This document shows, one piece after another, positions 1 through 50,054 of a stretch of 64,000 bases of DNA; positions within the stretch are counted from its first letter, which is position 1; each line of letters opens with the position of its first letter. Source of the DNA: Candidatus Woesearchaeota archaeon. GTDB lineage: Archaea > Nanobdellota > Nanobdellia > Pacearchaeales > GW2011-AR1. Made by a program: the position numbers and the translations under genes. The DNA lies in contig CAZOCP010000003.1 of the NCBI GenBank assembly GCA_964578345.1, forward strand, positions 1,136-65,135, read 5' to 3'. The notes below the pieces were generated by a model. It was not told where the DNA came from. It searched no databases and saw nothing but the letters and a program-made list of their open reading frames with translations.

Positions 1-1231
1 CAGAAGAATCGTCAGAAGAACCGCCTCCGCCACCCTGATTATTAGTCTGTGGTTGAGGAGGAGGATTATTATCTGGAGGTGTTGTATCTGGAGGTGTTGT
101 TGATAAAAAGAATAAATCCCTGCTAGATCCAAAGATATTGGATACCTCTGCTTCTGGCAAAGCACGATTAAATATAACTACTTCATCAATAAATCCAGTG
201 AAATAACTATTTACGTAACGCCCAATATTCAATTGAAGAGGATCCTGAGTTAAACTCTTTGCTCCAATAACTTTAGTATAAACCTTAACTCCATCAACAT
301 AAAATGCTACTTCACCTCTAGGTGATTGAACAGGTGCTCCAGTGTTTGATGGAGTGTTTTGAATAGCTACTCCAGTAATTGCACCTCCATCAGGCGAGGC
401 TGTTGCATCACTATTAGGTGTGGTTGTTGCATCTTCACAAGGATAAGGCCCACCACAACCATAATCAGGCGTTCCACCTCCAGAAGAAGGAGGGGTTGTT
501 GTGTCCCCAGTAGACGGGACGTCAGAATCGGCTAATGGAGTATAGGTAAACGAATAATGATGCCACTTTTTATCAGAAAAGATATCTTTCACAACATATC
601 CAGAATCAAAAAATATCATATTAAGATTATTAGCTTCTCTTTTCATTTGTAAACCGTTATTTGGTCCCAAGTGAATTAATCCTCCAGGAAGTTGAGGATC
701 TACTATGCTACCATAAGGTTGAGTTGTTGTTTCGCCATAAGGTTGAGTTGTTGTTTCGCCATAAGGTTGAACAGCTGCCCCAATAATTGCACTTCCATAA
801 GGTTGAGTTGTTGTACTTCCATAAGTAGACACTAAATCGCTTTTAGCCCATAATGAAACAGTTATATCATCGCTTTTAATACTTGCTAATTCACCAAGAG
901 AAATATAGTCCCCTATCCCATCAAAATAAAGAGCTCTATTTCCTTTTTCAAAGGATCTATATTTTAAATTGCCATGTACAACTGGGTTATTGACTGCTGC
1001 AAAAGAATTGTCTTTGACTGCTGCAAAAGAAGTGTCTTGAATTCCACCTTGAAAATTATAATATAAAAGAACAGAAGGATCTTCAGTGAGTGGAGATAAA
1101 GATATTTTCTCTTTCTCCTCGTATGTAAACAACAGCACTAAAGAAGCAAGAATAATGAATCCCAAAACAAAAAAAGTCACGAAAAATTTAAGACTTTGAT
1201 CGTTATATTTCCTCTTTTTCAAACTCTTCAT
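1..1231 (-). CDS. Partial (C-terminus beyond window edge) secreted/membrane-anchored surface protein with two concanavalin-A-like (LamG/Laminin_G_3-type) lectin domains, (E)TTTQPYG tandem repeats and a Pro/Thr-rich tail
   Basis: Reverse translation from ATG at 1231-1229 gives MKSLKKRKYNDQSLKFFVTFFVLGFIILASLVLL (signal anchor). Then ...LYFDGIGDYISLGELASIKSDDITVSLWAK... and ...FTGFIDEVVIFNRALPEAEV, typical LamG_3 signatures. Runs to window start without a stop, so it is absent from the ORF track. Confidence 0.6.
   Translation of the reverse strand, partial: MKSLKKRKYNDQSLKFFVTFFVLGFIILASLVLLFTYEEKEKISLSPLTEDPSVLLYYNFQGGIQDTSFAAVKDNSFAAVNNPVVHGNLKYRSFEKGNRALYFDGIGDYISLGELASIKSDDITVSLWAKSDLVSTYGSTTTQPYGSAIIGAAVQPYGETTTQPYGETTTQPYGSIVDPQLPGGLIHLGPNNGLQMKREANNLNMIFFDSGYVVKDIFSDKKWHHYSFTYTPLADSDVPSTGDTTTPPSSGGGTPDYGCGGPYPCEDATTTPNSDATASPDGGAITGVAIQNTPSNTGAPVQSPRGEVAFYVDGVKVYTKVIGAKSLTQDPLQLNIGRYVNSYFTGFIDEVVIFNRALPEAEVSNIFGSSRDLFFLSTTPPDTTPPDNNPPPQPQTNNQGGGGGSSDDSS
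711..820. repeat. In-frame tandem 24-bp repeat (ccataaggttgagttgttgtttcg x ~4.5) inside the LamG surface protein gene, encoding (E)TTTQPYG repeats
   Basis: Direct reading: units at 711-734 and 735-758, a partial unit at 759-, and 795-818. Confidence 0.8.
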
Positions 1232-8841: not shown

Positions 8842-10254
8842 TTACCTTATTCCAAATAATCTTCTAAACCAATTAAGAATTCTCTCAATTAAATTTTGGC
8901 TTACACACTCATTAGATAAACAAACATTACTGCCGCATTCAAAGTGATTATCACATTTTACTCCGGCTTTTAATTGGGATACAAATGCTCCAGAATCAGA
9001 ACAATAGTCATTTATTTTTCTATAACCAAAAGGATAGCATTTATTATCTAATAAACAGGAATCCTTACAAATTACTTCGCCTACTTTTACACAAGCGCCA
9101 TAAGAACAGTCAGTTGGGCATTTATATTCAGTTCTACCTACAGTACCATTAACATTACAAAAACTCTCTATTAATGTATTACCAGTGCATGAATCTTTTG
9201 TGATTGAACCTCCGCCTCCACCACCTCCACCCCCATTACAAGATGGACCTTGATTAGAAGAAGAACCGCTAGAAATTTGACCAAGAGTATAATAATCCTC
9301 TCCTCCATCGCTATCAGAGCAAGTATAAGTTACATTAGAACAAACAGATAAATCATAACTGATTCGATTATAATCGCAGTAGTTTATATTACCAGATTGA
9401 GTATTATACCCAAATTCGCCGCATTTCTGAGTTGTTTCAAGAGGGTTAACACAAGCGCCATTAAAACAGCCATTAGGGCATTTATATTCTGTAAGTACTT
9501 CTACTCCCCCACTGCTGTTTATACCGCAGCTATATTCCCTAAGAAAATTAGAAACGTTCCCCAAACTACAAACATCTTTATATATTCCAAATTTATTGCC
9601 GTCTGTTGTATAATTGATATAACCAGAAAAATAAAATTCCTCTCCGCCATCAGAATCATTGCACATAGCTTTATCTGTCTGAACAGTAAAATAAAGATTT
9701 ATAGTCTTGTCTTTAAACCCATTTGATACCTTAACTTTAACATTTTTTACTCCAGCCTTTGTATACATGCAATTAAAAGTTGAAGATGGATTTCCTGTTA
9801 CAGAAATACCATCAACTCCGCAATCGTGTTGACTAAACGTAATCTCTCCCTTATAAGCATATCCTGATAAATTAGTTACATTAACAGTCCATTGAACTAC
9901 ATCCCCAATTATAACAATCCCAGATTGTGTAGCAGTGACTAAAGGAGGATTTAAGTAAGCAAAAAATTCTTTATTAATGCATCCCCCCTTAATACAAACA
10001 TTCTCATTCCCACAAAATAGATAATGCCCGACTATTGTGGTATTAAGATCTCCGCAAAGATATTCAGTTAGATAATTTCCATTACAATAATCTATAGCAT
10101 TCTTGCCAGGTATACTAACATTCCCACTTATTTCATAATTAATTCCTCCATCGCTATCAATGCATAAAAGAAAGTCGTTTGAAGCTCCTGAAATAAAAGA
10201 ACTAGAAAACAAAACTAAAAAATTCAAAAATAAAATAATTGAAATTCTTTTCAT
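8842..10254 (-). CDS. Secreted Cys-rich protein with repeated C-x-DSDGG-...-DYC-...-EY-C modules and an encoded poly-Gly run
   Basis: Signal peptide MKRISIILFLNFLVLFSSS. Three CxDSDGG modules (CIDSDGGINYEISGNV..DYCNGNYLTEYLCG, CNDSDGGEEFYF.., CSDSDGGEDYYT..). GGGGGGGGG encoded at ~9205-9240. Confidence 0.6.
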   Translation of the reverse strand: MKRISIILFLNFLVLFSSSFISGASNDFLLCIDSDGGINYEISGNVSIPGKNAIDYCNGNYLTEYLCGDLNTTIVGHYLFCGNENVCIKGGCINKEFFAYLNPPLVTATQSGIVIIGDVVQWTVNVTNLSGYAYKGEITFSQHDCGVDGISVTGNPSSTFNCMYTKAGVKNVKVKVSNGFKDKTINLYFTVQTDKAMCNDSDGGEEFYFSGYINYTTDGNKFGIYKDVCSLGNVSNFLREYSCGINSSGGVEVLTEYKCPNGCFNGACVNPLETTQKCGEFGYNTQSGNINYCDYNRISYDLSVCSNVTYTCSDSDGGEDYYTLGQISSGSSSNQGPSCNGGGGGGGGGSITKDSCTGNTLIESFCNVNGTVGRTEYKCPTDCSYGACVKVGEVICKDSCLLDNKCYPFGYRKINDYCSDSGAFVSQLKAGVKCDNHFECGSNVCLSNECVSQNLIERILNWFRRLFGIR

Positions 10255-12307: not shown

Positions 12308-13300
12308 CTACTTATTCAAAGGCTTCTCTTTTGCCTTTGAATTGTCAAACCAATCAAAATACTGAAGCGCGGAATCTTTTCCCTTTTTTATTAAATCTTC
12401 TTTTTGCTCATCTTTGAGGGAAAATTGGGTTGCTTTTATTTTTCCGCAGTTGATGTATATTGTTCTATGCCAGTCTTTCTCATCAAGATGTTTTTTATTT
12501 GCGTTGTCTATAAATCCGACAATTAGAGTTTCTACAAATCCTTTTAGATTTTTTACTTCCTCTTGATATCCTGGATTTTCTATTGTGCTTATCTCCTCTT
12601 GAGAGTCGACTCTTAAGCCAATTGTCTCTTTATTATAGATTTTCTCTTCACTATTTTTTTCTAAGTTTTTATATTCTTCCAGATATTCAGGCTTGTCAAA
12701 AATATCTATAGGATAATTGTAATATAAACCTCCATCAATAAAGAACTGCTTATTTTGTTCAACTGCTTGGAAGAAGAGAGGTATTGAAGCTGAAATTCTG
12801 ACCGCATCTATTATCTTCATGTCTGGAGTGTTTTTTTTGCTCATTATAATCTCTGTTTTATTATTAAGATTAGTCCCAGTCAGATACAATTCTTTAATTA
12901 GGCCGCCTTGATTTTCTTTTAATTCATACAACTGACGAAACGTGATATTTTCTGCAGATTTCTTCTTAAAAACTTCCTGCAGCCATTTTTTTAGTTTATC
13001 ACCCTTAAACCATCCGAATCTTTTATAAAATCTTATTATATTAAATGGAATGAAAAATGAGTCGTCTTTAAAATCTGCGAAATCTGTTTTTTTAAGCAAT
13101 TCGCTTATTTCTTGAGCAGTGTAACCAATGCTTAAAATAGATGCAGTGATTGCTCCAACCGAACTGCCTGCAACTCTTTCTATATTTTTTAATATGCCTT
13201 TTTCCTCCAAGACCTGCATTGCTCCGGCATAAGCGATTCCCTTTATTCCCCCGCCCTCAAAAACCAAGTTCTTAAAATTATAACTTGAATATTTTTTCAT
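12308..13300 (-). CDS. Patatin-like phospholipase
   Basis: GGGIKGIAYAGA oxyanion motif, G-S-S-V-G (GxSxG) nucleophile, FIDGG catalytic Asp motif. Confidence 0.8.
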   Translation of the reverse strand: MKKYSSYNFKNLVFEGGGIKGIAYAGAMQVLEEKGILKNIERVAGSSVGAITASILSIGYTAQEISELLKKTDFADFKDDSFFIPFNIIRFYKRFGWFKGDKLKKWLQEVFKKKSAENITFRQLYELKENQGGLIKELYLTGTNLNNKTEIIMSKKNTPDMKIIDAVRISASIPLFFQAVEQNKQFFIDGGLYYNYPIDIFDKPEYLEEYKNLEKNSEEKIYNKETIGLRVDSQEEISTIENPGYQEEVKNLKGFVETLIVGFIDNANKKHLDEKDWHRTIYINCGKIKATQFSLKDEQKEDLIKKGKDSALQYFDWFDNSKAKEKPLNK

Positions 13301-19384: not shown

Positions 19385-19852
19385 ATGATGCAAATTTATA
19401 CTTGTATGGCAAAGACATCTACTAAGATTTTGATTGCCGTTTTGGTTATCATTGTATTGGCCGTTGTTCTTTTCTTTGTTTTAAGGCCATCTAATAAACC
19501 TGATTTGATTATATCTAATGTTACTTTTGGTTTTGCTCAAAGTCCAGTCTACATAACAATTTCAAATATTGGTAATTCTGATGTAACGGAAAGGGTAACT
19601 TTGTGTGTGTGGGACAAGGATTCAACAAAAGAGGCCTATAAACAAAGAACGGGAACAGAATGTAGTATGTCTGTAACCAATTATGATCCATCTGATGCGA
19701 GTAAGAATCTAGCGATAAAAGCAGGGCAAAGCATAAATTTGACGTTCAGTAGCCTTGGAGGATACTTTCCGCCACTTAACTTCGAGATAGATTCGGATAA
19801 TGTAGTTAAAGAATCGAATGAAGATAATAATTTCTATACACTTACTCAATAA
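19385..19852 (+). CDS. Membrane-anchored CARDB-like domain protein
   Basis: TM anchor ILIAVLVIIVLAVVLFFVL, then PDLIISNVTF...YITISNIGNSDV...ESNEDNNFYT, the CARDB pattern. Confidence 0.5.
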   Translation: MMQIYTCMAKTSTKILIAVLVIIVLAVVLFFVLRPSNKPDLIISNVTFGFAQSPVYITISNIGNSDVTERVTLCVWDKDSTKEAYKQRTGTECSMSVTNYDPSDASKNLAIKAGQSINLTFSSLGGYFPPLNFEIDSDNVVKESNEDNNFYTLTQ

Positions 19853-20981: not shown

Positions 20982-22316
20982 TTGCGAAACATGCTAGAAA
21001 CAAAAAAAGGGTGGCGATTTTTCATTGTAGCTTTAATTCTTCTATTATTAATTATTGCCCTAGGTTTGCTTCTCAACCCTCTCTTCACAGGCGGATCAAT
21101 TCAAGAGAATCGTTCTCCATCGACATGCAGCGGAGCTTGGTCATCTTGCGCTAATGCTTTTACTGACGATTCAAGCAGAGCAACTGCTTCTGTCAATGAT
21201 CAAAACAAAAAATCAGGAATTTGGCGCAATTACAATCTGCTAATACCACAAAGTGCAACTATTGAGAAAGTCTATCTTAGAGCAGACTTCTTTGCAAAAT
21301 TTAATAATGGCTATCTTGATATAAAAATAAGCAATGATGGTGGTTTAACTTATGGTCCTTCCCATATAATCGGCGGCAATACTCAAGAAAAAGATTATTT
21401 AATTGATGTCACAAATGACAGAACCTGGTCTCCTTCGAGCTTAAACAACGAAAAACTCATTGTTCAAGCAACCTGCTTTAAGAAAGGCGGCGGAAAGAAT
21501 CCGCTCTGCTATCTTGACTGGCTGCCAGTAAATGCCAGCTATACATTATTTGACTTCTCTCTTTCGATAAGTCCTTCTGGAAACTCTGTCTCACCAGGGG
21601 GAGCAACTTCCGCATTAATTTTTATCAACTCTCTTGGCGGCATATCTCAACCAGTTTCCCTATCACAAACAGGCTGCCCACCAGCTACAAGTTGTATTCT
21701 TAGTCCATTAACAGGAAACCCTCCATATAATTCGCAACTCTTAATTACAACCTCTCCCACAACGCCTACAGGAAAATATTTGATAACAATAATAAGTTCT
21801 GGTGACGGCAAAACAAAAAGCACAGGTTTCATTTTGAATGTTACTTCCAGTACAAATGAGACACAAAACATCTCTTCACCTCCTCCAACATCAAACATGA
21901 CATCTAATAATAGTTGCTTTGATTCAGACGGAGGATTGAATTATAATGTTCCTGGCAACGTAACAAAAGGATCATCAACTTACAAAGATTATTGTGGAAA
22001 TCAGCAGTATAATTACACTATAGAATATTACTGTGCATCAAGTGAAAGTGTTGCTGAGCAGCTATATTCATGTCCAAAAGGACAATGCAGTTGGGATGTA
22101 ACAGGATCGGGTGCGTGTTCTGATGACACTGCGCCTTGCACTGATTCAGACGGAGGATTGAATTATAATGTAAAAGGAAGTGTTACTAACAGCCTTCTCA
22201 CTCACACAGACTATTGTGGCAACCCAAGTCTTGTTGTCGAGAATTACTGTGATGCAAATAGTAAGATGGTCTATTCAACTTATTCCTGCACATGTAGTGA
22301 CGGAGCTTGCGTCTAA
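20982..22316 (+). CDS. Secreted Cys-rich protein with C-x-DSDGG-LNYNV-G-V...DYCGN...EYYC modules (same module family as 8842..10254)
   Basis: Signal anchor WRFFIVALILLLLIIALGLLL. Two C-terminal modules CFDSDGGLNYNVPGNVTKG..DYCGNQQYNYTIEYYC and CTDSDGGLNYNVKGSVTN..DYCGNPSLVVENYC. Confidence 0.6.
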   Translation: MRNMLETKKGWRFFIVALILLLLIIALGLLLNPLFTGGSIQENRSPSTCSGAWSSCANAFTDDSSRATASVNDQNKKSGIWRNYNLLIPQSATIEKVYLRADFFAKFNNGYLDIKISNDGGLTYGPSHIIGGNTQEKDYLIDVTNDRTWSPSSLNNEKLIVQATCFKKGGGKNPLCYLDWLPVNASYTLFDFSLSISPSGNSVSPGGATSALIFINSLGGISQPVSLSQTGCPPATSCILSPLTGNPPYNSQLLITTSPTTPTGKYLITIISSGDGKTKSTGFILNVTSSTNETQNISSPPPTSNMTSNNSCFDSDGGLNYNVPGNVTKGSSTYKDYCGNQQYNYTIEYYCASSESVAEQLYSCPKGQCSWDVTGSGACSDDTAPCTDSDGGLNYNVKGSVTNSLLTHTDYCGNPSLVVENYCDANSKMVYSTYSCTCSDGACV

Positions 22317-24607: not shown

Positions 24608-25336
24608 ATGGAAAGAATAAAAATAGAAAAAGTGAGCAAGACCTTTAACTTAAGCTTTAAAAAAAACCAGACAGCTCTCCAAAGAACAGTTGCATTTTTT
24701 ACAGAAAAAGAGCAGAAGAAAACACTTACAGTTCTTGAAAATGTATCTCTCTCCGTAAAATCAGGAGAAATAAAAGGATTAATAGGAAGCAACGGTTCAG
24801 GAAAAAGTACTTTATTAAGGATAATTGCAGGAATATATCCTCCAGACTCCGGAAAAATAACCAATACTGGAAAAGTAGTCTCAATTATTAATTTAACAAG
24901 CGGACTACAAGAAAGACTGACAATGAGAGAAAATATATTTCTATGTTGTACATTCTATGGATTATCTATTAAAGAGACAAAAAATAAATTCGATTATATA
25001 GTTTCGTTCTCCGAATTAGAAAAATTTGTTGACACTAGGATATTTCAGTTCTCAAATGGAATGCTGCAGCGCCTTGCATTCTCAATTGCAGTAAATTGCT
25101 TTCCTGAGATCATGCTTCTTGATGAAGTATTTGAAGTAGGAGATGAGAAATTCAGGGAAAAAAGCTCTGAAGAAATAAAAAAACTTGCAAAACAAGGAGT
25201 GGCAATTTTATTGGTAAGCCATGATATGCATTTAATAGAAAAACATTGCCATAAAGTTATTTGGCTTAGCAATGGCAAGATTAAGAAGGAAGGAGAAACT
25301 AAAAAAGTAGTGAAAGGATATTTAGCAGAAAACTAA
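24608..25336 (+). CDS. ABC transporter ATP-binding protein (Wzt/TagH/KpsT-like, short form)
   Basis: Walker A GSNGSGKST, signature FSNGMLQRLAFS, Walker B IMLLDE. Confidence 0.8.
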   Translation: MERIKIEKVSKTFNLSFKKNQTALQRTVAFFTEKEQKKTLTVLENVSLSVKSGEIKGLIGSNGSGKSTLLRIIAGIYPPDSGKITNTGKVVSIINLTSGLQERLTMRENIFLCCTFYGLSIKETKNKFDYIVSFSELEKFVDTRIFQFSNGMLQRLAFSIAVNCFPEIMLLDEVFEVGDEKFREKSSEEIKKLAKQGVAILLVSHDMHLIEKHCHKVIWLSNGKIKKEGETKKVVKGYLAEN

Positions 25337-26256
25337 AGAAGGAAATTTCTTTCTAAATATCCTTTAAGAACACCTAAGCGCCAACCGCAGTCAAAAATAA
25401 TATTAAAATAACTTTCAGAGATTGGTTTTCTAAATAATTCAGAAACTATCCACTTGGGATAGAACAAATAAGACTTAAAAGAAATTCCGCTAAAAATAAT
25501 CTCTTTACCAATAGATTCATCTAAAGAATAATGCTTTCGAAAAATTTTATAAATCCAATATCCTCTATTAAAATTTAGCCGTGCTGCTTTTAAAACTGTA
25601 GACTTATGATGATGTCCGACCCTCACATCAGGAATAAACTTTATATGGGCATGTTTTCTAGAGCGTAAATAAAAATCTACATCTTCTAAATTAAATATCA
25701 TAGAATCAAACATTATTTTTTTAGCAAGAGATGTGAGAATTGCAAAATTTTTTGTGTCCAAATGCCTTATATATTCTCCAAGTACAAACTGTCTCAAAAA
25801 TTCTTTATTTGCACGCTGAATTTGCCTTGTTGAATAACTTTGAATAACATCTTTTTCATACCCCATAGTAATTTTGGCGTATTCTTCACGAATAGGCTTT
25901 GTTAATTCAAAAAGCCAATTTTTAGGAATTATACAATCTGAATCGGTCATTGCAATAATTTTTCCATGGGCGGCTCTAATCCCGGCATTTCGCGCAGCTC
26001 CACGAGAACGAAATGGTTCAAAAATATATCTAACTTTTTTATTCTGGCGGGAAAATCTCTCAATAATTTCTTTTGTCTTATCAGTTGAATTATTATCTAC
26101 GGCAATAACTTCATAATTTCTATAAGTTTGGCTGAGAATAGAAGACAAACATTTTTCTAAAGTCTCGCCCCCATTAAAAACAGGAATAACTGCTGAAATT
26201 TTAGGATTTTTCATAAATCTTCTCTTTAATTTTTTTAATAAAAATTTTTGTATCAA
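25333..26256 (-). CDS. Glycosyltransferase family 2
   Basis: ISAVIPVFNGGETLEKCLSSILSQTY..YEVIAVDNNSTD with a DSD motif. True start may be the internal Met 14 codons downstream, which reduces the overlap with the upstream gene. Confidence 0.75.
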   Translation of the reverse strand: MIQKFLLKKLKRRFMKNPKISAVIPVFNGGETLEKCLSSILSQTYRNYEVIAVDNNSTDKTKEIIERFSRQNKKVRYIFEPFRSRGAARNAGIRAAHGKIIAMTDSDCIIPKNWLFELTKPIREEYAKITMGYEKDVIQSYSTRQIQRANKEFLRQFVLGEYIRHLDTKNFAILTSLAKKIMFDSMIFNLEDVDFYLRSRKHAHIKFIPDVRVGHHHKSTVLKAARLNFNRGYWIYKIFRKHYSLDESIGKEIIFSGISFKSYLFYPKWIVSELFRKPISESYFNIIFDCGWRLGVLKGYLERNFLL

Positions 26257-27289
26257 ACTTTTTAGCCTGTTTTAAACAGTCATTCTTATATATAAAAGGA
26301 TTCTCTCCTATTTTATTAATAGCTGATTTAAGTGTTGAAACATTAATATCATCAATTAAGATTCCTGTTTTACCATTTACAATACTTTCTTTATACCCTC
26401 CTTCATTAGGTGCTATTACCGGTTTTCCCGATGCCATAGCTTCTACTGCATTCATGCCAAAATCTTCGTTGTGTGACGTAGTGATAAAACCTTTGCATGT
26501 TGCGTACAGCTCTCTCAATCTATCAGCATCCACCCAGCTCAAAATTTTCACATGAGAAGGAGCGATGCGCTTGATATATGAAACATATTGCTGAAAATGA
26601 GCAGACTGCTCATAACTCCCTACTACAACCAATTGTTCTTGGGGAAGCTGAGCAAACGCGTGCATCTGCAAATCAATTCTCTTATGAGCAATAAGTCTAT
26701 TCACACTCAACCAGAAATCTCCATTTTTCTGATAATAAAAAAGCGAAGTATCTATAGGGGGATATACCACTAAGGCATTTCTTCCAAGATAACGATGAAT
26801 TCTTACTTGTACGTTCTTCGAATTACAAACTATTTTATCAACTTCTCTCACATATTTTCTATACAAAGACCTGTTCCAAAATACCCAAGCATCGAAAGGC
26901 CAGCGCTTATACCATTCAACAATGTAAGTTCGAGTGTAATGGTATAAATCCCATAGCTCTCGCGGAGGTGAATGCACATACCAAAGATTAGGTTTATTCT
27001 GTAAAGCACCAGACACTGCCCAATCCCCTCCAATAATATAAAAATCATATTTTTTTCCAAGATTCAGAGTTCTAAACCGAAACAAGGCCATTTGCTGACG
27101 AAAAGGAGCCTGAAGAGGTATACTCCCTATAGAAATAACTTTCACATTAGCAAACCCCATTTTTCGTATCTTCTCTCTATCAATATTAGTTGTGTATATA
27201 TCGGCTCGTAATTCTCGAGCTAAGGTCAAACACACCATCTCTGCACCTCCGATGTTGTCCATAAAATTATGGAAGATAGCTATCTTCAT
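26201..27289 (-). CDS. Glycosyltransferase family 4 (GT-B)
   Basis: N-terminal GGAEMVCLTLAREL, C-terminal E..G...VEAMASGKPVIA motif. Confidence 0.75.
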   Translation of the reverse strand: MKIAIFHNFMDNIGGAEMVCLTLARELRADIYTTNIDREKIRKMGFANVKVISIGSIPLQAPFRQQMALFRFRTLNLGKKYDFYIIGGDWAVSGALQNKPNLWYVHSPPRELWDLYHYTRTYIVEWYKRWPFDAWVFWNRSLYRKYVREVDKIVCNSKNVQVRIHRYLGRNALVVYPPIDTSLFYYQKNGDFWLSVNRLIAHKRIDLQMHAFAQLPQEQLVVVGSYEQSAHFQQYVSYIKRIAPSHVKILSWVDADRLRELYATCKGFITTSHNEDFGMNAVEAMASGKPVIAPNEGGYKESIVNGKTGILIDDINVSTLKSAINKIGENPFIYKNDCLKQAKKFDTKIFIKKIKEKIYEKS

Positions 27290-27345
27290 AGAAGCTCTGC
27301 CAACTCTGCCCCTTTATTAAATTGCATTGTATTGAAGTCTATAAT

Positions 27346-28608
27346 TCATTTTATCATATTTAGGAGAGTTGATATGTTCTTCTTATTTAATTTCTGATAA
27401 TTTTTTGAAAATTTATAGGCTCCTGTTGTTAGATTTCTATAAAGCTTATGGTCAGTAAGTATTCTGATTACTGCGTTTGAAAAAGATTCAGGGTCATCTG
27501 CAACCAAAAATGCTTTGTTCTTTCTATCTAAACCTTCGGCACTATGAGATGTCATAACTATCGGCTTGGAATAACTGAGCGCTTCAACAACTTTTATTTT
27601 CAAGCCAGTACCTACATAAAGCGGGCTTATCACCACATCAGCACTATCATAAAATTTCGCAATGTTTTTTACTTCCCCTAATACCTTACAGCCTTCTACT
27701 GCTTTAATTTTATGGCCTATATTCCCTGCTAAAATAAGTCTTACATTTGGCAAATGCATTTTTATCCTGGAAAAAATATTTTTAATAAAAAAGTTTACAC
27801 CATGAATATTTGCTTTATTTCCTGATCCTAAAAAAGCAATATTGTTTCCTACTTTAGTTTTTTGAGGTTTTTTTAAGGAAGTGATATGTCCTATTATAAT
27901 CACGGGCTTTTTTGTCAAGGTTCTCAAGAATTTTGCTTCTTCTTTTTGGATAGCAATAATTATATCCGCTCTTTTAATGCCTCTCGCCTCTTCTGATATT
28001 GTTGTCGAAAAAAAATCTTCAAATATTCTTTTCTTGCTATATTTTTTATTTCTATTTGTAAATACATCATGAGTATCTATAATCTTAACCACTTCATTGC
28101 CTACCGCCTCTAATGCTCTTGACATAAATACATATTCAACCATTATAGCATCATAAATATATTTTGCATGCATTTTTTTAATCCTGTAATCAAGACTAAT
28201 ATCATAAAATCTGTCTAAACCTGTATTTTTTCTTTTCATAGGGTATAGAGTAGAAAAAGCATCTGGAAAATAAGGCTTGAGTTCCCTATATAACTCTGAA
28301 AAATATTTTTTAATAAGTTTTCCTGCTATTCCAGAAGTGTAGTGAAAAAGAGCATCGGCACGCTGAAAAAAGTTAGGAGAATTAAGAGGAACATACACAA
28401 AATTATCCCAAAATAATTTCATAGCCGGAATATCTGGTTTTCTCTCCACATGGTTGCTGTGACGCTCACGATCCCAATAAAGAAAATGAACTTCATAACC
28501 TCTTTTTTGTATTGATGATGCAAGAGCGTAAATGCGTGCACGGTTTCCTGCATTTTGTGGATGGCTGGGAGTAGGTGAAATAATAAGAATTCTTTTCCGC
28601 TCTTTCAT
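27346..28608 (-). CDS. Glycosyltransferase, GT-B fold (GT4-like)
   Basis: PTPSHPQNAGNRARIYALASSI N-terminus, C-terminal GT-B domain (SPLYVGTGLKIKVVEALSYSKPIV). Confidence 0.6.
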   Translation of the reverse strand: MKERKRILIISPTPSHPQNAGNRARIYALASSIQKRGYEVHFLYWDRERHSNHVERKPDIPAMKLFWDNFVYVPLNSPNFFQRADALFHYTSGIAGKLIKKYFSELYRELKPYFPDAFSTLYPMKRKNTGLDRFYDISLDYRIKKMHAKYIYDAIMVEYVFMSRALEAVGNEVVKIIDTHDVFTNRNKKYSKKRIFEDFFSTTISEEARGIKRADIIIAIQKEEAKFLRTLTKKPVIIIGHITSLKKPQKTKVGNNIAFLGSGNKANIHGVNFFIKNIFSRIKMHLPNVRLILAGNIGHKIKAVEGCKVLGEVKNIAKFYDSADVVISPLYVGTGLKIKVVEALSYSKPIVMTSHSAEGLDRKNKAFLVADDPESFSNAVIRILTDHKLYRNLTTGAYKFSKNYQKLNKKNISTLLNMIK

Positions 28609-28679
28609 TATCTTTAATAGTTTTTCCTTTTATAAGTTTATTCATGAATATAAATCAACAATAAATCTATGTGTAAATC

Positions 28680-29867
28680 TTAGTGCCTCTTTATTCCCAG
28701 CACGCTCAGCATAAAACCAGAAAAAAAGGTTTGCACTCCTAAAACCACTAAAGTCAGAGCAATAATTGCATTTTTTACTTCTTGTAACTCACCAAAACCA
28801 CTCTGCAACCACTGGATAAAAATAGACAAGTACATAATAGCGCTAATACCAGCCATAGCTAAACCACTCATGAGCGCTTTTTCTAAAGTTATATGCCTGA
28901 GAAAAAAAGCCATAGAACTGCTCTTCTCTTCTAAGTAAATCATAGAATAAGTTTTAGCAAAAAATCCAAAGAAGATAAGTTGATAACCGACGATGATAAG
29001 CATAGAAGAAAGAAACATAGGATGATAGAATAACTCTACACCAACAACCCGTCCTCCACCTAAATAGAGTATAAGCATACTCACTAGACCTAAAAGAAAA
29101 AGTCCAATGCCTGGCAGCAGAAAAAGGTAGAGAGGGCTGTACAATAATAAGAAACGCAAATGTCTCCATCCATCAGAGAGCGTCTTCAACTTAGACCGCC
29201 CGCACCGACGATGATAAACAATAGGAAGCTCTGCTATGGTAAGTTTTTTCTTGACTGCCTGTACAATCATCTCTGAAGCAAATTCCATTCCTGTCGTATG
29301 CAAAGACAATTTTTTCCATGCACCCTTGGTGATAGCCCGCATCCCACAATGCACATCCTTCACCTTTGCACTAAAAAAGAGCCGCAGAAGAAAGGAAAGC
29401 GCAGGATTTCCAATCCATTTATGTGTAAGAGGCATCGCGCCTTTCTCCATCTTTCCTGCAAACCGATCGCCAACAACCATATCTGCTCCCTGCCGCAATG
29501 CATCAACAAAACGAGGAATCTCAGCAAAATCATAGCTCCCGTCTGCATCAGCAAGAAACAAATACTTTCCTCTCGCAGCTTTCAGTCCTTCCATACAAGC
29601 AATACCATAACCTTCCTTATCATGCTTTACCACTCTCGCTCCCAAACGTCTGGAAATATTTGGAGAAGAATCAGAAGAAGAATCAGAAACAATTATCTCT
29701 CCAATAATATTATTCTCTCTAAAAACTTTCTTAATTAATTGTATACACCCGCCAACTGCTTCCTCTTCATCCCTGCACGGCAAAATCACGCTTACTTCAG
29801 GAACCCCATCTAAAAAATTTCTATTCACCATTTTAACTAATAAATATATTATATAAATATTATTCAA
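28680..29867 (-). CDS. Membrane-anchored GT2 glycosyltransferase (dolichyl/polyprenyl-phosphate sugar synthase-like, C-terminal TM domain). Compositionally GC-richer than neighbours
   Basis: VSVILPCRDEEEAV...IIVSDSSSDSS, DAD motif, four C-terminal TM helices. Many spurious overlapping ORFs in other frames reflect the higher GC. Confidence 0.7.
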   Translation of the reverse strand: MNNIYIIYLLVKMVNRNFLDGVPEVSVILPCRDEEEAVGGCIQLIKKVFRENNIIGEIIVSDSSSDSSPNISRRLGARVVKHDKEGYGIACMEGLKAARGKYLFLADADGSYDFAEIPRFVDALRQGADMVVGDRFAGKMEKGAMPLTHKWIGNPALSFLLRLFFSAKVKDVHCGMRAITKGAWKKLSLHTTGMEFASEMIVQAVKKKLTIAELPIVYHRRCGRSKLKTLSDGWRHLRFLLLYSPLYLFLLPGIGLFLLGLVSMLILYLGGGRVVGVELFYHPMFLSSMLIIVGYQLIFFGFFAKTYSMIYLEEKSSSMAFFLRHITLEKALMSGLAMAGISAIMYLSIFIQWLQSGFGELQEVKNAIIALTLVVLGVQTFFSGFMLSVLGIKRH

Positions 29868-29875
29868 TCAAAAAC

Positions 29876-31309
29876 TCATCTCTTATATACATATCTTCTG
29901 TTATTAAAGACTAATTCCCAGCCGCAGTCAATCGGTTCCCTTGAAAAAACATATTCAACCTCCTGCTCTTCAAGAATATCTTCTTTTACATCGCATTCAG
30001 AAGAAAAAAACAAATCAACTGCTTCTCCATTGCCATAAAAATATAAAGCTCCGACAGGTTCATGCCCAGTCAATGCATAGAGTGCATTTGAAACATCTTT
30101 CGGAGCCATAACTTTAGTATGTTTAAGTTCAGATAAATAATCTAAAGCTTCAAGGTCAGAATCCTCAATTAAATGATATATTTTAAGGCCAGAAGGCAGC
30201 TCATAATAAGAAACAAAAGAAGATAAAAGGAAAAGCACAATTAAAAGAAAAGATAAAAATCTATTAAAAATAAATTTAGCATTAGATATATAGTATTTGT
30301 TGCTCGCAAATTTTTCAATTATTAAATTCATTCCAAAAGCACTAAGCAATGGAAGACTAAGTGCAAAATAATATAAATTTCTCTGATAGGGAGAAAAATA
30401 AGAAACATCTATCACTCTATATAAAAAAATAGATAAAAGAAGCATAAGAGGCCAAAATAAATAAGTAATATAAGAAACTCTTTTCAATTTAGAAAAAACA
30501 AGATAAAAAAATCCTATAAAAGCCAGAAAATATCCTATTAAACTATAAATCTCAAAAAAAGAATTATCAAGCTCGAAGATAGTCCAGCCTGTTTTAAATT
30601 GTAAGGCAGAAAAGATATTTATAAATAACTCAGAAAAATTTAGATTAAACAATTGTTTGTAAAATAACGCTCCGGTAACAGGGATAAAAATAAATAAAGA
30701 GAAAAATTTCCACTCTTTAAATATATATGAACGGTAGTAAAAAGCTGTGAAAATTAAAAACATAGCTGAAAAAAAAACAGATATAGAGTGTACAAAAATA
30801 AGAAAAAACATAATTCCAAAACTGATGAGAATATATTTCTTATTTTCACGCGCTAATCCTTCACTAAAAAAATGTATATACAAAAAAATAAATGGTATCG
30901 AGAAAGTTAAAGGTGTAAAAAACCACAATCCTAAGATATTAACATTTGATTTAATTGATGCGAAAAAAATCATGGCGAAAAAAGAAATCCAGAAATTTCT
31001 GCTCTTCTTCATAACAACATAAAAAAGAGTCAAGCTGGAAAAAACAGCCCATATTGCAGGCAGAAACTTATACACTGAAATTAAATCAAAAAATTTTGAC
31101 AATAAATATAAAAATAAATGAAATCCTATTTCTAGCCCAAAGCTCCCAGATGTATATTCTCCGCTTCCTAATTTCAAAGCCTCAGTTATATGATGCCATT
31201 CATCAACATGCAAAGGATAAGGATAAGAAAAATGAGGGGCATAAACTAGAAAAAATATTCCAATTCCTGCTAAAATAACTAAAAAATATTTATATCTATC
31301 AATTATCAT
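29876..31309 (-). CDS. Polytopic GT-C-type glycosyltransferase (PMT/ArnT-like), putative
   Basis: More than 10 TM helices. First-loop motif HVDEWHHITEAL resembles the DE motif of GT39/GT83. No WWDYG motif, so it is not AglB. Confidence 0.4.
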   Translation of the reverse strand: MIIDRYKYFLVILAGIGIFFLVYAPHFSYPYPLHVDEWHHITEALKLGSGEYTSGSFGLEIGFHLFLYLLSKFFDLISVYKFLPAIWAVFSSLTLFYVVMKKSRNFWISFFAMIFFASIKSNVNILGLWFFTPLTFSIPFIFLYIHFFSEGLARENKKYILISFGIMFFLIFVHSISVFFSAMFLIFTAFYYRSYIFKEWKFFSLFIFIPVTGALFYKQLFNLNFSELFINIFSALQFKTGWTIFELDNSFFEIYSLIGYFLAFIGFFYLVFSKLKRVSYITYLFWPLMLLLSIFLYRVIDVSYFSPYQRNLYYFALSLPLLSAFGMNLIIEKFASNKYYISNAKFIFNRFLSFLLIVLFLLSSFVSYYELPSGLKIYHLIEDSDLEALDYLSELKHTKVMAPKDVSNALYALTGHEPVGALYFYGNGEAVDLFFSSECDVKEDILEEQEVEYVFSREPIDCGWELVFNNRRYVYKR

Positions 31310-37855: not shown

Positions 37856-37942
37856 TGATCCCGCCAAGAATTGAACTTGGGACCTCTGCCTTCCTGATAA
37901 ACATTATCAGAGCAGCGCTCTAACCAACTGAGCTACGGGATC
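37856..37942 (-). tRNA. tRNA-Ile (anticodon GAU) with 13-nt intron at 37/38
   Basis: Reverse complement: GATCCCG TA GCTC AGTTGGTTA GAGC G CTGCT CTGATA[ATGTTTATCAGGA]A GGCAG AGGTC CCAAG TTCAATT CTTGG CGGGATC A. Perfect 7-bp acceptor, T-loop TTCAATT, palindromic ctgataa/ttatcag (BHB-like). Confidence 0.8.
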
Positions 37943-38018: not shown

Positions 38019-38420
38019 ATGAGATCAATAGAAAAAATTATATTGGCATTTATTTGCCTGGAGATATTGTTAACATTAACAATACTAATTTCAAATTTCA
38101 ATAGTATTGATCTATGTATAGGAGGAACAGATTGCAACACAGTGCAAAACTCAGAATATGGAAAAATTGCAGGCGTCAGACTAAGCTTATGGGGATTCAC
38201 GGCATTCATTTCACTGCTTCTTATTTATTTATCAGTAATTTATTACGAAAGAGGTTATATTTTATATAAAAAAGCAACTTTGCTTGGAGCATGCATCTCG
38301 ATATATCTTATATATTTACAGCTTTTTATCATAAAAAAAATCTGCTCAAGTTGTTTAGCAATAGATGTTCTCATGATTATAATTTGCGCTTATAGCTACT
38401 ACGCTTTTCAATCAAAATAG
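38019..38420 (+). CDS. Vitamin K epoxide reductase (VKOR)-like membrane thiol oxidoreductase
   Basis: 4-5 TM helices, loop Cys pair CIGGTDC, C-terminal-helix CSSC (CxxC) active-site-like motif. Confidence 0.5.
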   Translation: MRSIEKIILAFICLEILLTLTILISNFNSIDLCIGGTDCNTVQNSEYGKIAGVRLSLWGFTAFISLLLIYLSVIYYERGYILYKKATLLGACISIYLIYLQLFIIKKICSSCLAIDVLMIIICAYSYYAFQSK

Positions 38421-39689: not shown

Positions 39690-40265
39690 ATGAGTATAAA
39701 GGAAAATTTAATAAAATTTTGGAGATTTCTGAAAGAAGATACTTGGCAATCATGGATTGTCTCGTTAGTTCTAGCAATTATAGTTATCAAATTTATCTTA
39801 TTCCCCCTTCTATCATTGATTACCGGCTCGTCGTTTCCTTTAGTTGTAGTTCAGTCATGCTCAATGTATCATGAGTCTTCATTTGATAAATGGTGGGAGG
39901 AAAATGGACAATGGTATGAGTCAAGAAATATTGCAAAAGAAGAATTCAAAACATTTTCGTTTAAACGCGGCCTTAATAAAGGAGATATAATAATCGTAAC
40001 TGGATATTTAAAATATAATAAAGGAGACATAATAATATTTAATGCAGGCACCCAATATCCTATTATACACAGAATAGTAACAATTAATCCTACTTCCACA
40101 AAGGGAGATAATAATCAGGGCCAATTCTCAAACGGTCTTGAAAGCGATATAGAAGATGATAAGATTTTAGGAAAATCATTTATAAAAATACCTCTTATCG
40201 GATGGATCAAGCTGATATTCTATGAGCCATTTAGAAACCCAAAAGAGAGAGGACTATGTAAATAG
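39690..40265 (+). CDS. Signal peptidase I, archaeal/eukaryotic Sec11 (S26B) type
   Basis: N-terminal TM, VVVQSCSM (SGSM-type Ser box), GDIIIFNAGTQYPIIHRIV (His box), GDNN box. Confidence 0.85.
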   Translation: MSIKENLIKFWRFLKEDTWQSWIVSLVLAIIVIKFILFPLLSLITGSSFPLVVVQSCSMYHESSFDKWWEENGQWYESRNIAKEEFKTFSFKRGLNKGDIIIVTGYLKYNKGDIIIFNAGTQYPIIHRIVTINPTSTKGDNNQGQFSNGLESDIEDDKILGKSFIKIPLIGWIKLIFYEPFRNPKERGLCK

Positions 40266-40671: not shown

Positions 40672-40796
40672 GGCCTCGTAGCTCAGCCCGGTTAGAGTAC
40701 TTGGCTCTTACAAATAGAAAGTTTCTAGGAGCACTAGAAAACTGATTGAAGTTTGTAGAAACCAAGGTGTCGGGGGTTCAAATCCCCTCGAGGCCA
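40672..40796 (+). tRNA. tRNA-Lys (anticodon CUU) with ~50-nt intron at 37/38
   Basis: GGCCTCG TA GCTC AGCCCGGTTA GAGT A CTTGG CTCTTA[intron 40711-40760]A CCAAG GTGTC GGGGG TTCAAAT CCCCT CGAGGCC A. Confidence 0.75.
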
Positions 40797-41671: not shown

Positions 41672-42628
41672 CTAGTCTTTAAAATAATCATAGTTTAAGA
41701 AATACAATGTTTCTACCAACTCATTAAGTTCAACAAGAATAGAGTAGGTACTGTAAGAAATAATGCCCCTAACTTCGTGCTTCTTAATTTTTTCTTCATT
41801 ATCTTTTCTTAAACTATCCAGCTCATTTGTTAAAGACACAAACTTCTTTATATCAAATTTTCTATAAACGGAAATAAGCTCTTTTGTCAGATTTACAGAT
41901 TTTTCTAGAGATTTGAGAGTGTATTTATCAATTCTTTCTTTGTTCTTGGTAAAGTGAAGAGAAATCTCGAAAAACTTGTCTCCTAAAGATTCAAGTTTAA
42001 GAATCAAGTCATAATAAACCATAGTTTTCTTATCCGATTCAAAGCTAAATGAGGAAAGAATTCTAGTGCAGAAATCTGTTGTTTGAGTTATCAGCCTTTC
42101 TGTCAAAAGTGCTTCATCAAAGGAATCTTTATTTTGTGATAAGGATTCATAGACTTGTTCTGCTTGATGAATCAGATGCAAGCAAAGTTTGTTTAAGACA
42201 TTTGTAAACTCACCTGGATTGACTTTTGCGCTTTCCACTGAAAGAGCATAATTTTTTCCATCGTGCTTTCCTATTTCCCAAAATTGCATTCCTGTGAGGT
42301 GGTCAAATGTGTTTTTTATCATATCAATTTCTTTTACTAATCTTCCTCGCCTTTCAACCGTCTTATTTGGAGTGTAATAAGCTTTTATCTTCTTATAACC
42401 CATCTTATAAAGAATACCAATAACTTTAGTAGAAACAGGATGAAGAGAAGAAACATCAAGGCTTGCAGATTCTTCTTCAATTGTGTGCTTAGTAGAAATT
42501 CTGAGTGCATTCCCTTTTTGTTCAACATCTAATTCTTGGCCTTTTTCTAATCTGAATTTTTTTACCCAATCCATTGGGAGGGATATTGCCAATGTTACAG
42601 GTCCTGCCTGAAGTATCTTTCTATTCAT
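41672..42628 (-). CDS. AbrB/SpoVT-domain protein with helical C-terminal region (archaeal PhoU-like regulator possible)
   Basis: N-terminal AbrB-type swapped-hairpin motif LQAGPVTLAISLPMDWVKKFRLEKGQELDVEQKGNALRI. Confidence 0.4.
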   Translation of the reverse strand: MNRKILQAGPVTLAISLPMDWVKKFRLEKGQELDVEQKGNALRISTKHTIEEESASLDVSSLHPVSTKVIGILYKMGYKKIKAYYTPNKTVERRGRLVKEIDMIKNTFDHLTGMQFWEIGKHDGKNYALSVESAKVNPGEFTNVLNKLCLHLIHQAEQVYESLSQNKDSFDEALLTERLITQTTDFCTRILSSFSFESDKKTMVYYDLILKLESLGDKFFEISLHFTKNKERIDKYTLKSLEKSVNLTKELISVYRKFDIKKFVSLTNELDSLRKDNEEKIKKHEVRGIISYSTYSILVELNELVETLYFLNYDYFKD

Positions 42629-47352: not shown

Positions 47353-47892
47353 ATGGGTATAAAAATTGAGAAACAAAGAAGTTGTGAGAGTTGTTTATCC
47401 GTTTGTTTAATGAGCCTCTTAGATTCTCAAAAAGGAATAATATTAGATGAAAAAGAAGAGTTTAATATACTTTTTGAGGGATTAAAATTTACACGCTTAG
47501 ATTTTTCAACAGGTCATTTAGTGTATTTAGCTAAAAAACTTCCGGAATTAACTTTTGAACAATATATAGATTTTGATGTTTTTTATGAAATCCTAAAAAA
47601 ACTAGATATTCCTAAGAATCTTAAATTGTGTTCTAAAAAAATAAATTTGAAATTCTTAAAAGAGATGACTAAAGAAAACCCCGCAATTATTTATATAGAT
47701 ATGTTTACCTTAGAGGGAATATATCATTATTCTCATTTTGTAATTTTAAAAGAAATTAATGATGAAAAGGCCACCATCTTTGATCCTTGGTCGGGAGAGA
47801 AAATTGAAATGAAAACGAAAATTTTAATGAAATCAGTTAGCTATGTTAGAAATATGTTGAAGATTAGCCCTAAGTTGATAAGGATAAAATAA
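47353..47892 (+). CDS. Peptidase C39-like (papain-fold) cysteine peptidase domain protein
   Basis: QRSCESCLSVCLMSLL (Gln/Cys) and HYSHFVIL (His) arranged as in C39 bacteriocin-processing peptidase domains. Confidence 0.4.
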   Translation: MGIKIEKQRSCESCLSVCLMSLLDSQKGIILDEKEEFNILFEGLKFTRLDFSTGHLVYLAKKLPELTFEQYIDFDVFYEILKKLDIPKNLKLCSKKINLKFLKEMTKENPAIIYIDMFTLEGIYHYSHFVILKEINDEKATIFDPWSGEKIEMKTKILMKSVSYVRNMLKISPKLIRIK

Positions 47893-48686: not shown

Positions 48687-50054
48687 ATGAAATCTCAATT
48701 AAAAAAGATTGAAGGAATAATCGGATTAGAAGTCCATGCTTATCTGGTAACATCAGAAAAACTTTTCTGTCAATGTAAAGCTTCACGCGAAAAAAGTTTG
48801 CTGCCTAATATAAACATTTGCCCAATTTGTACCGGCCAACCAGGAGCAAAGCCAATGCTCCCCAATAAAATAGCAGTGAAAAAGACAGTGCAAATTGCCG
48901 TAATGCTTGGCTGTAAAATTAATGAATATATGTTATGGCAGCGAAAACACTATGACTGGCCAGACTTGCCTAAAGGATATCAAAACACCCTATCAGGAAG
49001 TCATGCCGCACCAATTGGAGAAAACGGAAAGTTTTACAATATATCAATAAAAAGCATGCATTTAGAAGAAGATCCTGCTTCTTGGAATCCCGAAACAGGA
49101 GAGGTAGATTATAATCGTTCAGGACTCCCATTAGTCGAAATAGTAACTTCTCCAGAATTCAAGACCGCAGAAGAGGTAATTACGTGGCTGAAAAAACTAT
49201 TGCACAGTTTTTCATATTTAAAATGTGTGGACGCAAACGCAGGCATTAAAGTTGACGTAAATGTCAACATCCCAAAAAAAACAGAGAGAGTTGAAATAAA
49301 AAATATTAGCTCTCTGGAAAGCATAAAAAAAGCAATTGAATATGAGCTAAAGAGACATGCAACCGAAAAAGTTTCTAAGCAAGAAACAAGAAGATATGAT
49401 GATTTGAAAGGCAGAACAATATTAATGCGGACGAAAGAAACACAAGACGACTATAGGTTCATTAGCGATCCTGATTTAGTGCCGCTTATCATAAATAAAG
49501 AATTTATCAAAAACCAGGAAAAGAGCCTTCCAGAATCTCCTGAGCAGAAGCTGAAAAAAATAATATCTATATACAAAATAGACAAAAAAAATGCAGAAAT
49601 TCTAGCAAAAAATATTGACATTATAGAGTTTTTTGAGAAAGTTGCAGAGGAAATAGACCCTAAATTTGCCATTCCATGGGTAACTGGAGAGCTCCTAAGA
49701 CTGATAAATGAAAATAAAACAACATTGGATAAAATAGACATCAATCCAACTCACTTTGCTGCCCTGCTAAATCTAGTTAAAAACAATTCAATAACACCTC
49801 TAAAAGCAAAAGAAATACTTAAGAAATTCTACCCTAAAAGCTTCCAGCCAGAAACAGAGAGAAAAATGACGAATCCTGCTGAAATAGAAAAGGTGGCAAA
49901 AGAAGTAATAGCTAAAAATACAAGCGCTGTTGAAAGCTACAAAAAGGGAGAGAAAAATGCAATTAATTTCTTAATGGGTGAGATAATGAAAATAACAAAA
50001 AAAAGAGCAGATTTTAAAATTTCTAGAGAATGTTTAGAAAAATTGCTAAGATAG
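48687..50054 (+). CDS. gatB: Asp/Glu-tRNA amidotransferase subunit B (GatB)
   Basis: GLEVHAYL...KLFCQC...CPICTGQPGAKP and GatB-specific RKHYDWPDLPKGYQ. Confidence 0.8.
   Translation: MKSQLKKIEGIIGLEVHAYLVTSEKLFCQCKASREKSLLPNINICPICTGQPGAKPMLPNKIAVKKTVQIAVMLGCKINEYMLWQRKHYDWPDLPKGYQNTLSGSHAAPIGENGKFYNISIKSMHLEEDPASWNPETGEVDYNRSGLPLVEIVTSPEFKTAEEVITWLKKLLHSFSYLKCVDANAGIKVDVNVNIPKKTERVEIKNISSLESIKKAIEYELKRHATEKVSKQETRRYDDLKGRTILMRTKETQDDYRFISDPDLVPLIINKEFIKNQEKSLPESPEQKLKKIISIYKIDKKNAEILAKNIDIIEFFEKVAEEIDPKFAIPWVTGELLRLINENKTTLDKIDINPTHFAALLNLVKNNSITPLKAKEILKKFYPKSFQPETERKMTNPAEIEKVAKEVIAKNTSAVESYKKGEKNAINFLMGEIMKITKKRADFKISRECLEKLLR

Follow-up and report, generated by a model that had tools for sequence, protein, structure and literature searches.

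What are two large, cysteine-rich exported proteins of an archaeon made of, and what might join their cysteines into disulfides? The question is raised by a 64,000-nucleotide (nt) stretch of contig CAZOCP010000003.1 (the whole stretch is called the window here), in which the genes at 8842..10254 and 20982..22316 encode the proteins P1 and P2. A first-pass annotation had seen in both a repeated CxDSDGG module and had grouped them with other cysteine-rich exported proteins, a VKOR-like membrane protein and a Sec11-type signal peptidase as one oxidative-folding theme; open reading frames (ORFs) are present for all of these. The answer developed below is that P1 and P2 carry five copies of a widespread six-cysteine module that matches no named domain in the databases searched; moreover, we favour, with some reserve, the reading that they are surface proteins of a disulfide-bonded surface proteome oxidised, probably, by the VKOR homologue encoded in the window. 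The two proteins and their parts are as follows.

8842..10254, minus strand: P1, exported cysteine-rich protein of 470 aa with 32 Cys
10183..10254, minus strand: putative Sec-type signal peptide of P1 (aa 1-24, MKRISIILFLNFLVLFSSSFISGA), with a hydrophobic segment at aa 3 and, in the AlphaFold2 model, a helix over aa 2-19
9973..10164, minus strand: P1 module 1 (aa 31-94), six Cys; domain E-value 4.6e-12, predicted local distance difference test (pLDDT) 79-90
9445..9663, minus strand: P1 module 2 (aa 198-270), six Cys; domain E-value 3.3e-13
9085..9321, minus strand: P1 module 3 (aa 312-390), six core Cys and one extra Cys in an inserted loop; domain E-value 1.2e-12
8845..9084, minus strand: P1 C-terminal 8-Cys domain (aa 391-450) and amphipathic helix (aa 452-466); 13 aligned C-termini, pLDDT 85-91
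20982..22316, plus strand: P2, exported or anchored protein of 444 aa with 18 Cys
21915..22124, plus strand: P2 module 1 (aa 312-381), six Cys; domain E-value 1.9e-13
22137..22313, plus strand: P2 module 2 (aa 386-444), six Cys; domain E-value 6.9e-16, the copy used for modelling

Five instances of the motif C-x-D-[ST]-D-G-G are present in the six-frame translation of the window, at aa 31, 198 and 312 of P1 and aa 312 and 386 of P2, and nowhere else in it; the equivalent degenerate DNA pattern gave 5 matches where 0.00 were expected (100 dinucleotide shuffles), and the family profile matched the same five sites only, with per-domain E-values of 1e-12 to 1e-16. The repeat seen in the first pass as common to the two genes is thereby borne out, but not the length of ~40 aa given to it, as alignment of the five copies extends the unit through Y-x-C-P-x2-C-x2-G-x-C to 59-79 aa, with six cysteines in each. 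The consensus reads C1-x-DSDGG-x2-[YF]-x3-G … D-x-C2 … E-[YF]-x-C3 … Y-x-C4-(P)-x1-5-C5-x2-G-x-C6, and the six cysteines, together with D3, D5, G7, G14, D(C2-2), E(C3-3) and G(C6-2) (numbered from C1, or from the cysteine named), are carried by all five window copies.

The family to which these copies belong is large. Word-indexed homology searches with module profiles gave only 4 and 2 matches, and an exhaustive search was needed because a word index cannot seed queries as short and variable as the module. When a 9-sequence profile was run with hmmsearch against 1.84 billion cluster representatives (clusters at 50% identity), module-bearing clusters numbered 8,713 at E<=1e-3, 3,064 at E<=1e-10 and 419 at E<=1e-30, and the top matches had up to 26 copies per protein. 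Conservation across the family is pronounced: among 1,125 domain hits, Cys makes up at least 99% of the residues aligned at each of the six cysteine positions, and 976 hits have all six, most of the others being truncated at an end. The 952 full-length modules, from 154 proteins, have exactly six cysteines in 868 cases and eight in 63. Further conserved positions among the 1,125 hits are D3 (91%, with a further 9% Glu), [ST]4 (87%), D5 (97%), G7 (92%), G14 (93%), D(C2-2) (97%), E(C3-3) (95%) and G(C6-2) (95%). The four acidic residues D3, D5, D(C2-2) and E(C3-3) are complete in 953 of 984 modules (97%); joint loss within this quartet occurs in 7 cases, where independent losses would give 0.53. 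Relatedness of the sequences may inflate this excess, but the excess suggests that the four act together. The proteins are mostly of exported type, with an N-terminal hydrophobic segment in 131 of 152, and small secreted proteins of 97-139 aa with a single module also exist.

As to who carries the module, a hand-made degenerate DNA pattern was run against one genome per prokaryotic species and matched at least 120 loci, which are to be read as a sample, not a census; re-scoring with the profile confirmed the module in 99 of 120 loci among the matches listed. By record title, the 99 confirmed loci among the matches listed fall to DPANN archaea (57; Woese-, Pace-, Nano-, Micr-, Aenigm-, Iain-, Alti- and Nanohalo-archaeota), to the candidate phyla radiation (CPR) or Patescibacteria (13; Peribacteria, Gracilibacteria, Parcubacteria, Saccharibacteria and others), to unspecified archaea (12), to Methanosarcinales/Euryarchaeota labels, mostly third-party bins (11), and to other bacteria (6). 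Eleven of the 17 other-bacteria matches listed, including those from Verrucomicrobia, Planctomycetes and Dorea, were chance matches of the pattern without a module, and the same pattern gave 5 matches among IMG/VR viral contigs, none of them a module. The earlier suggestion of a lineage-specific domain is thus overturned: the module is found in thousands of clusters, in many DPANN phyla and in CPR bacteria. CPR and DPANN modules are not separated by identity (0.47 versus 0.44), which is uninformative on transfer.

Does the module correspond to a domain that already has a name? P1 and P2 matched no Pfam-A family at E<=1 and nothing significant in NCBIfam, nor did seven further family members have a significant NCBIfam match; a profile search of sequences in the Protein Data Bank (PDB) gave only chance nanobody matches (E>0.8). 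When 74 members with multiple copies (up to ten) were compared with Pfam, eight families were hit, which are taken to be accessory domains, each in 1-17 members and none recurring like the repeated module, the positions of the hits being unchecked. A description of the domain was not found in the literature. The named repeats taken as candidates, that is, dockerin, PKD, EGF, LDL-A, TSP3, the Myxococcus Cys-rich repeat and the MopE motif, were rejected for lack of a profile match to the module. A calcium loop of the DxDxDG type was likewise rejected, since the conserved motif is D-[ST]-D-[GN]-G, with Gly where the third Asp is expected; because of this difference, a cation site in the module has to be argued for separately and does not amount to a family assignment.

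Structure prediction, which the first pass had proposed as a check, was run with AlphaFold2 on P2 module 2 and an alignment of 113 sequences. The resulting model is of high confidence (mean pLDDT 97.9, predicted template modelling score 0.81, 59 of 59 residues at or above 90) and all-beta, with five main strands, a short C-terminal C-x2-G-x-C hairpin and the DSDGG stretch in an N-terminal loop; Foldseek found no match to it in the PDB. The opinion that the module could not be named has accordingly stood up in Pfam-A, NCBIfam and PDB sequences as well as at the level of the fold. The six near-invariant cysteines and the acidic quartet suggest three disulfides and a cation site: judged from sequence conservation, the module is most likely held by three intradomain disulfides, and the four near-invariant acidic residues may form a site for a cation, probably Ca2+. 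Among the 1,125 domain hits, naturally Cys-deficient modules were too few for inferring how the disulfides pair.

In P1 the order of parts is signal peptide, module 1, a beta-rich middle domain, module 2, a linker, module 3, the 8-Cys C-terminal domain and the amphipathic helix, over which the cysteines add up as 6 + 2 + 6 + (3 in the linker + 1 in the insert) + 6 + 8 = 32; the end of the signal peptide as listed is a predicted cleavage site. An identical protein is encoded on ENA contig ERZ27284378:k139_112194, and the best colinear relatives, of identical architecture and 28-31% identity, come from two Nanoarchaeota metagenome-assembled genomes (MAGs; loci L099 and L020). The pure Gly9 run already noticed in the first pass lies at aa 341-349 (nt 9208..9234), inside a variable loop of module 3; aa 330-347 of this loop have pLDDT <50 and are predicted to be disordered. 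A phase-variable repeat was considered for this tract and ruled out, since its mixed GGN codons do not make it prone to slippage. The full-length AlphaFold2 model of P1 has a pLDDT of 63 overall and of 72-90 in the modules, the regions of low confidence being the middle beta-rich domain, the linker (270-309) and the Gly9 insert; the beta-propeller and lipocalin matches that Foldseek returned for this model were judged meaningless.

The C-terminal unit of P1 follows the pattern C-x3-C-L-x3-K-C-Y-P-F-G-Y-R-K…C-x-N-x-F-E-C-x-S-N-x-C-x4-C-[VI]-S, after which comes G-L-x2-K-F-L-x-W-F-K-x-L-F-G. It has no Pfam match. Domain and helix recur together in 13 of 154 module proteins in a regular-expression screen of C-termini, and in ~10 more by eye; the 8-Cys unit is found in the P1-like ORFs of L099 and L020 and in P0096, P0151, P0084, P0128, P0144 and others. 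The unit with its helix could be a signal for surface retention or sorting.

P2 is built differently, from an N-terminal hydrophobic anchor, a beta-rich N-terminal region, a Ser/Thr/Asn-rich linker and two C-terminal modules, and it is 60% identical to P0039, a protein with five modules. Its listed start is a TTG at 20982; an ATG three codons downstream, at 20991 (MLETKKGW…), is the more plausible start as far as can be read from the sequence. A class III (pilin-type) signal was considered for the P2 N-terminus and rejected, because what follows K-G departs from the known pattern. P1 and P2 each contain 9-10 N-x-S/T sequons; four glycosyltransferase genes (GT2, GT4) lie with a gene for a multi-pass membrane protein at 25333..31309 (minus strand), and a further GT4 gene is found at 56416..57534 (minus strand), which fits heavy glycosylation of such sequon-rich surface proteins.

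If the module is a disulfide-bonded unit, what could oxidise it? The window encodes a VKOR homologue, a signal peptidase and three further cysteine-rich exported proteins:

38019..38420, plus strand: stand-alone VKOR homologue of 133 aa with four transmembrane helices and no fused thioredoxin domain
39690..40265, plus strand: archaeal Sec11/S26B-type signal peptidase I of 191 aa
50091..50528, plus strand: small protein anchored at its N-terminus, with six Cys in the ectodomain; module absent
50518..53235, plus strand: surface protein of 905 aa with signal peptide, C-terminal transmembrane anchor and 20 ectodomain Cys (14 in aa 717-854), no module
61210..61536, plus strand: small protein anchored at its N-terminus, with four Cys in the ectodomain; module absent

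The ORF at 38019..38420 is a member of the VKOR family. It scores 55.3 bits against Pfam PF07884 (cut-off 27.5), covering profile positions 10-133 of 134, and its hydropathy segments, starting at aa 2, 50, 86 and 105, amount to four helices; the defining features of VKOR attributed to Goodstadt and Ponting, as far as they are cited in PMC4555120, include four helices. C33, C39, S45 and the pair C109-S-S-C112 at the start of helix 4 align with the catalytic residues of the Synechococcus VKOR (4nv6), so that the four-Cys pattern ascribed to the ORF in the first pass is upheld and a loop serine is added to it; a loop pair, a CxxC at helix 4 and a loop Ser/Thr likewise belong to the traits by which the family is defined (PMC4555120). 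The NCBIfam VKOR equivalog models were matched below their cut-offs only, which makes the ORF a family member but not an equivalog of a characterised protein.

The signal peptidase scores 51.6 bits against TIGR02228, just short of the cut-off of 51.85, and only aa 94-176 align because of an insertion after box B. Its translation contains VVQSCSMYH (S-x-S-M), PIIHRIV (I-I-H-R) and TKGDNN (G-D-N-N), which we take to be the S26 boxes with the catalytic Ser, a His (not Lys) in box D and the G-D-N. The Sec11 assignment of the first pass is therefore retained as an archaeal type, borderline by hidden Markov model, with its catalytic boxes present. VKOR and signal peptidase, described there as next to each other, are near but not directly adjoining, being 1.3 kb apart with a tRNA-Gly gene and one ORF between.

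The proteins at 50091, 50518 and 61210, named earlier as companions of P1 and P2, are indeed Cys-rich but do not match the module profile, and for the 905-aa protein the 24 Cys reported for the C-terminal 200 aa have to be corrected to 16, with 23 in the whole protein. Across the window, cytoplasmic ORFs mostly have ~1% Cys or less, and none exceeds ~2.5% except CxxC zinc-ribbon proteins; among exported or anchored proteins, those with one N-terminal hydrophobic segment are mostly at 3.7-6.8%, and the 905-aa protein is at 2.5%. The ectodomain counts of the exported proteins are 32, 18, 6, 20 and 4, all of them even, and even ectodomain counts are a classical signature of disulfide bonding. In this respect, that is, exported proteins that are selectively rich in cysteine, the theme proposed in the first pass agrees with the counts in the window.

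On the reading that we favour, P1 and P2 would be cell-surface proteins exported by the Sec route in an archaeon with a small genome, probably one from a DPANN lineage of the Nanoarchaeota/Woesearchaeota group, P1 having a cleavable signal peptide and P2 an N-terminal anchor. Each module copy of ~60-65 aa would fold as a compact all-beta unit with three disulfides and a cation site, and modules in tandem, mixed with Ig-like or other domains, would form stalks or binding surfaces on the cell exterior that are rigid and resist proteases and may serve in attachment or adhesion. The 8-Cys domain and amphipathic helix of P1-type proteins may hold the protein at the membrane or S-layer, and P1 and P2 would both be retained at the surface. 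The VKOR homologue would be the equivalent of DsbB, passing electrons to a membrane quinone and so driving oxidative folding of P1 and P2, whether by way of a thioredoxin-fold partner whose gene lies outside the window or by direct action of its loop cysteines.

Several observations weigh against this reading. The genes concerned are spread over ~53 kb among housekeeping genes, which undoes their earlier grouping into one theme in so far as it implied a locus or system; what they reflect is a property of the whole genome. VKOR in particular is separated from P1 and P2 by 16-29 kb in which PolB, FEN1, glycosyltransferase, CDC48 and other genes are found, and residence on one contig is the sole link; furthermore, a scan of ~60 ORFs against Pfam gave no thioredoxin- or DsbA-like partner in the 64 kb. 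With the genes scattered and no partner in the window, the connection of VKOR to the module is a functional argument, not a genomic association. A word-indexed search for VKOR relatives (5-mer words, 5.8 billion proteins) returned only VKOR itself. Whole-protein Cys counts of 154 module proteins from elsewhere, after crude trimming of signal peptides, are even in 97 and odd in 57. Kazal-type serine protease inhibitor domains are found in 17 of 74 module proteins (P0008, P0028, P0040 and 14 others) and hint at roles other than attachment; given this co-occurrence, the roles of the family may include protection or inhibition besides attachment. PEGA, Kre9-like Ig, Big_2 and PG_binding_1 domains are sporadic among module proteins. 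Finally, DPANN archaea usually lack quinone synthesis, which leaves the electron acceptor of VKOR unexplained.

The alternative that survives best is coincidence: module proteins, VKOR and signal peptidase would be unrelated, VKOR serving pilins, S-layer proteins or a quinone function outside protein folding, and the modules being oxidised spontaneously or by another catalyst. It fits the spacing of the genes, for which neither an operon structure nor a partner oxidoreductase was found in the window, and the lack of a VKOR relative detectable by this sequence in any of the 120 listed 8-kb module loci from other genomes (0 of 120), although such loci are too short for co-occurrence at the level of the genome. 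A Sec-exported proteome this rich in cysteine nevertheless needs some oxidant, and no disulfide-generating enzyme can be recognised in the window other than VKOR, whose catalytic residues are intact; coincidence is held to be unlikely, if still a serious contender.

Rather improbable, in our estimate, is that the module proteins are secreted soluble effectors, such as protease inhibitors or toxins aimed at hosts or competitors, and not structural or adhesive. The Kazal-type domains of members elsewhere and the single-module secreted proteins of 97-139 aa would suit this, as would the cleavable signal peptide of P1 and its lack of a transmembrane anchor; against it, P1 and P2 themselves lack Kazal or catalytic domains, many members reach a very large size, with 10-26 copies in tandem, as is typical of surface fibres, P2 retains its N-terminal anchor, and the conserved terminal amphipathic helix of P1-type proteins suggests retention. 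That the cysteines bind a metal (Zn, Fe-S or Cu), making the module a metal-binding or redox unit, is very improbable, since six invariant Cys with conserved acidic residues and one weak match to the MopE putative metal-binding motif (1 of 74 module proteins, E = 3.8e-4) are outweighed by the lack of CxxC or CxxCH pairs and of a conserved His in the module, its extracytoplasmic location, the mostly paired occurrence of extra Cys (8-Cys variants) and an AlphaFold2 fold obtained for the apo sequence at pLDDT 97.9.

The window as a whole has 33.6% G+C and encodes genes of archaeal character, namely an archaeal histone, family-B DNA polymerase, FEN1, CDC48, deoxyhypusine synthase, GatD/GatE and TFS; the colinear relatives of P1 in Nanoarchaeota MAGs make it probable that it comes from a DPANN archaeon, in line with the guess of the first pass. 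Some other features of the window may be recorded. An over-long tRNA gene of 87 nt at 37856..37942 (minus strand) and another of 125 nt at 40672..40796 (plus strand) probably contain introns; the latter was found by Rfam only and missed by ARAGORN, whose call of tRNA-Tyr (anticodon ATA) for the former looks unreliable. GatB-like, GatD and GatE genes lie at 48687..50054, 55134..56402 and 58736..60175 (plus strand), in one 12-kb stretch, and among them sit the Cys-rich surface genes at 50091 and 50518, a tRNA-Arg gene and ProRS. The gene that follows immediately downstream of the family-B DNA polymerase encodes a patatin-like phospholipase (12308..13300, minus strand), for which a tie to scavenging of host lipids by a lipid-auxotrophic symbiont would be speculation. 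Two exported proteins low in Cys are a Laminin_G_3 (concanavalin-like lectin) domain protein cut by the window edge (1..1231, minus strand) and a small CARDB-domain protein (19385..19852, plus strand). There are also a Fic/DOC-domain protein (57906..58697, plus strand), an ORF with a MazE-like N-terminus (41672..42628, minus strand) and a weak Peptidase_C39-like ORF (47353..47892, plus strand; 22.8 bits, cut-off 22). Elsewhere, one locus matched by the DNA pattern by chance, L082 of archaeon SI037S2_bin4, has no module nearby and encodes a 371-aa ORF with a thioredoxin-like F-Y-G-D-G-C-P-H-C.

A large part of microbial diversity falls to DPANN archaea and CPR bacteria, organisms that live attached to other cells and whose surface proteins are almost entirely unannotated; with at least 8,700 clusters at 50% identity, the module is among the commonest building blocks of these proteins. 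Its definition provides annotators with a new domain model, structural biology with a small and tractable target, and the search for candidate attachment proteins with a marker. The pairing with VKOR raises the question of how extracellular disulfides are made without respiratory chains and often without oxygen. One could go further and propose that a Ca-binding three-disulfide fold is a hallmark of DPANN and CPR episymbionts, spread by gene transfer between domains and used in host contact, with VKOR drawing on quinone of the host membrane; we regard this as a long shot, but were it true, assembly of the attachment surface in quinone-less DPANN cells would depend on the host. New here are a repeating unit defined with its fold and conservation, its presence in many DPANN phyla and CPR bacteria alike, and an archaeal case beside a minimal stand-alone VKOR. 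For CPR bacteria it has already been described that tiny symbionts export Cys-rich proteins and that VKOR can stand in for DsbB; as the general ideas are in the literature, the advance is one of definition and archaeal extension, not a new principle.

How does this compare with known systems? LDL-receptor class A (LA) and TSP3 modules are eukaryotic, disulfide-rich, Ca2+-binding extracellular repeats of ~40 aa. The unit described here resembles LA, EGF and TSP3 modules in being a small tandem extracellular six-Cys unit with an Asp/Glu cluster and a D-S-D-G-like stretch from which large surface proteins are built, a likeness of function and not of descent, as homology is not detectable. It differs from LA and TSP3 in that there is no sequence match (Pfam, E<=1), in its greater length (~60-65 aa), in its predicted all-beta fold, in the spacing of its cysteines and in being prokaryotic.

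With the Synechococcus VKOR (4nv6) the window protein has in common the four-helix core, the C…C loop pair, the loop Ser and the CxxC at helix 4, but it is very divergent (phmmer E = 0.05) and spaces its loop cysteines as C-x5-C. Archaeal stand-alone VKOR homologues are typically without a thioredoxin domain (PMC4555120). The oxidative folding pathway of Actinobacteria made up of VKOR and MdbA (DsbB- and DsbA-like, respectively; Luong et al. 2017, as far as cited in PMC6744442) resembles the proposed one in the loop Cys pair and CxxC of its VKOR, in serving disulfides of exported proteins and in belonging to organisms without an outer membrane; CPR genomes, too, often place VKOR adjoining an MdbA-like oxidoreductase (PMC6744442). 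In contrast, the window contains no MdbA/DsbA-like partner, and its VKOR is minimal (133 aa), lacks a fused thioredoxin domain and has an archaeal host.

A close parallel to P1 and P2 is found in Peribacteria, a lineage of ultra-small symbionts, for which large extracellular proteins bearing signal peptides and ~7% Cys were described and a role in attachment and rigidity was proposed (Anantharaman et al. 2016, PMC4736985); no domain was defined in that work, and weak similarity to Myxococcus Cys-rich repeats was reported. Full-length copies of the module are present in three of four Peribacteria loci that we examined. The phenomenon is thus the same, but the case in the window is archaeal, and here the repeating unit, its fold and its conservation are defined.

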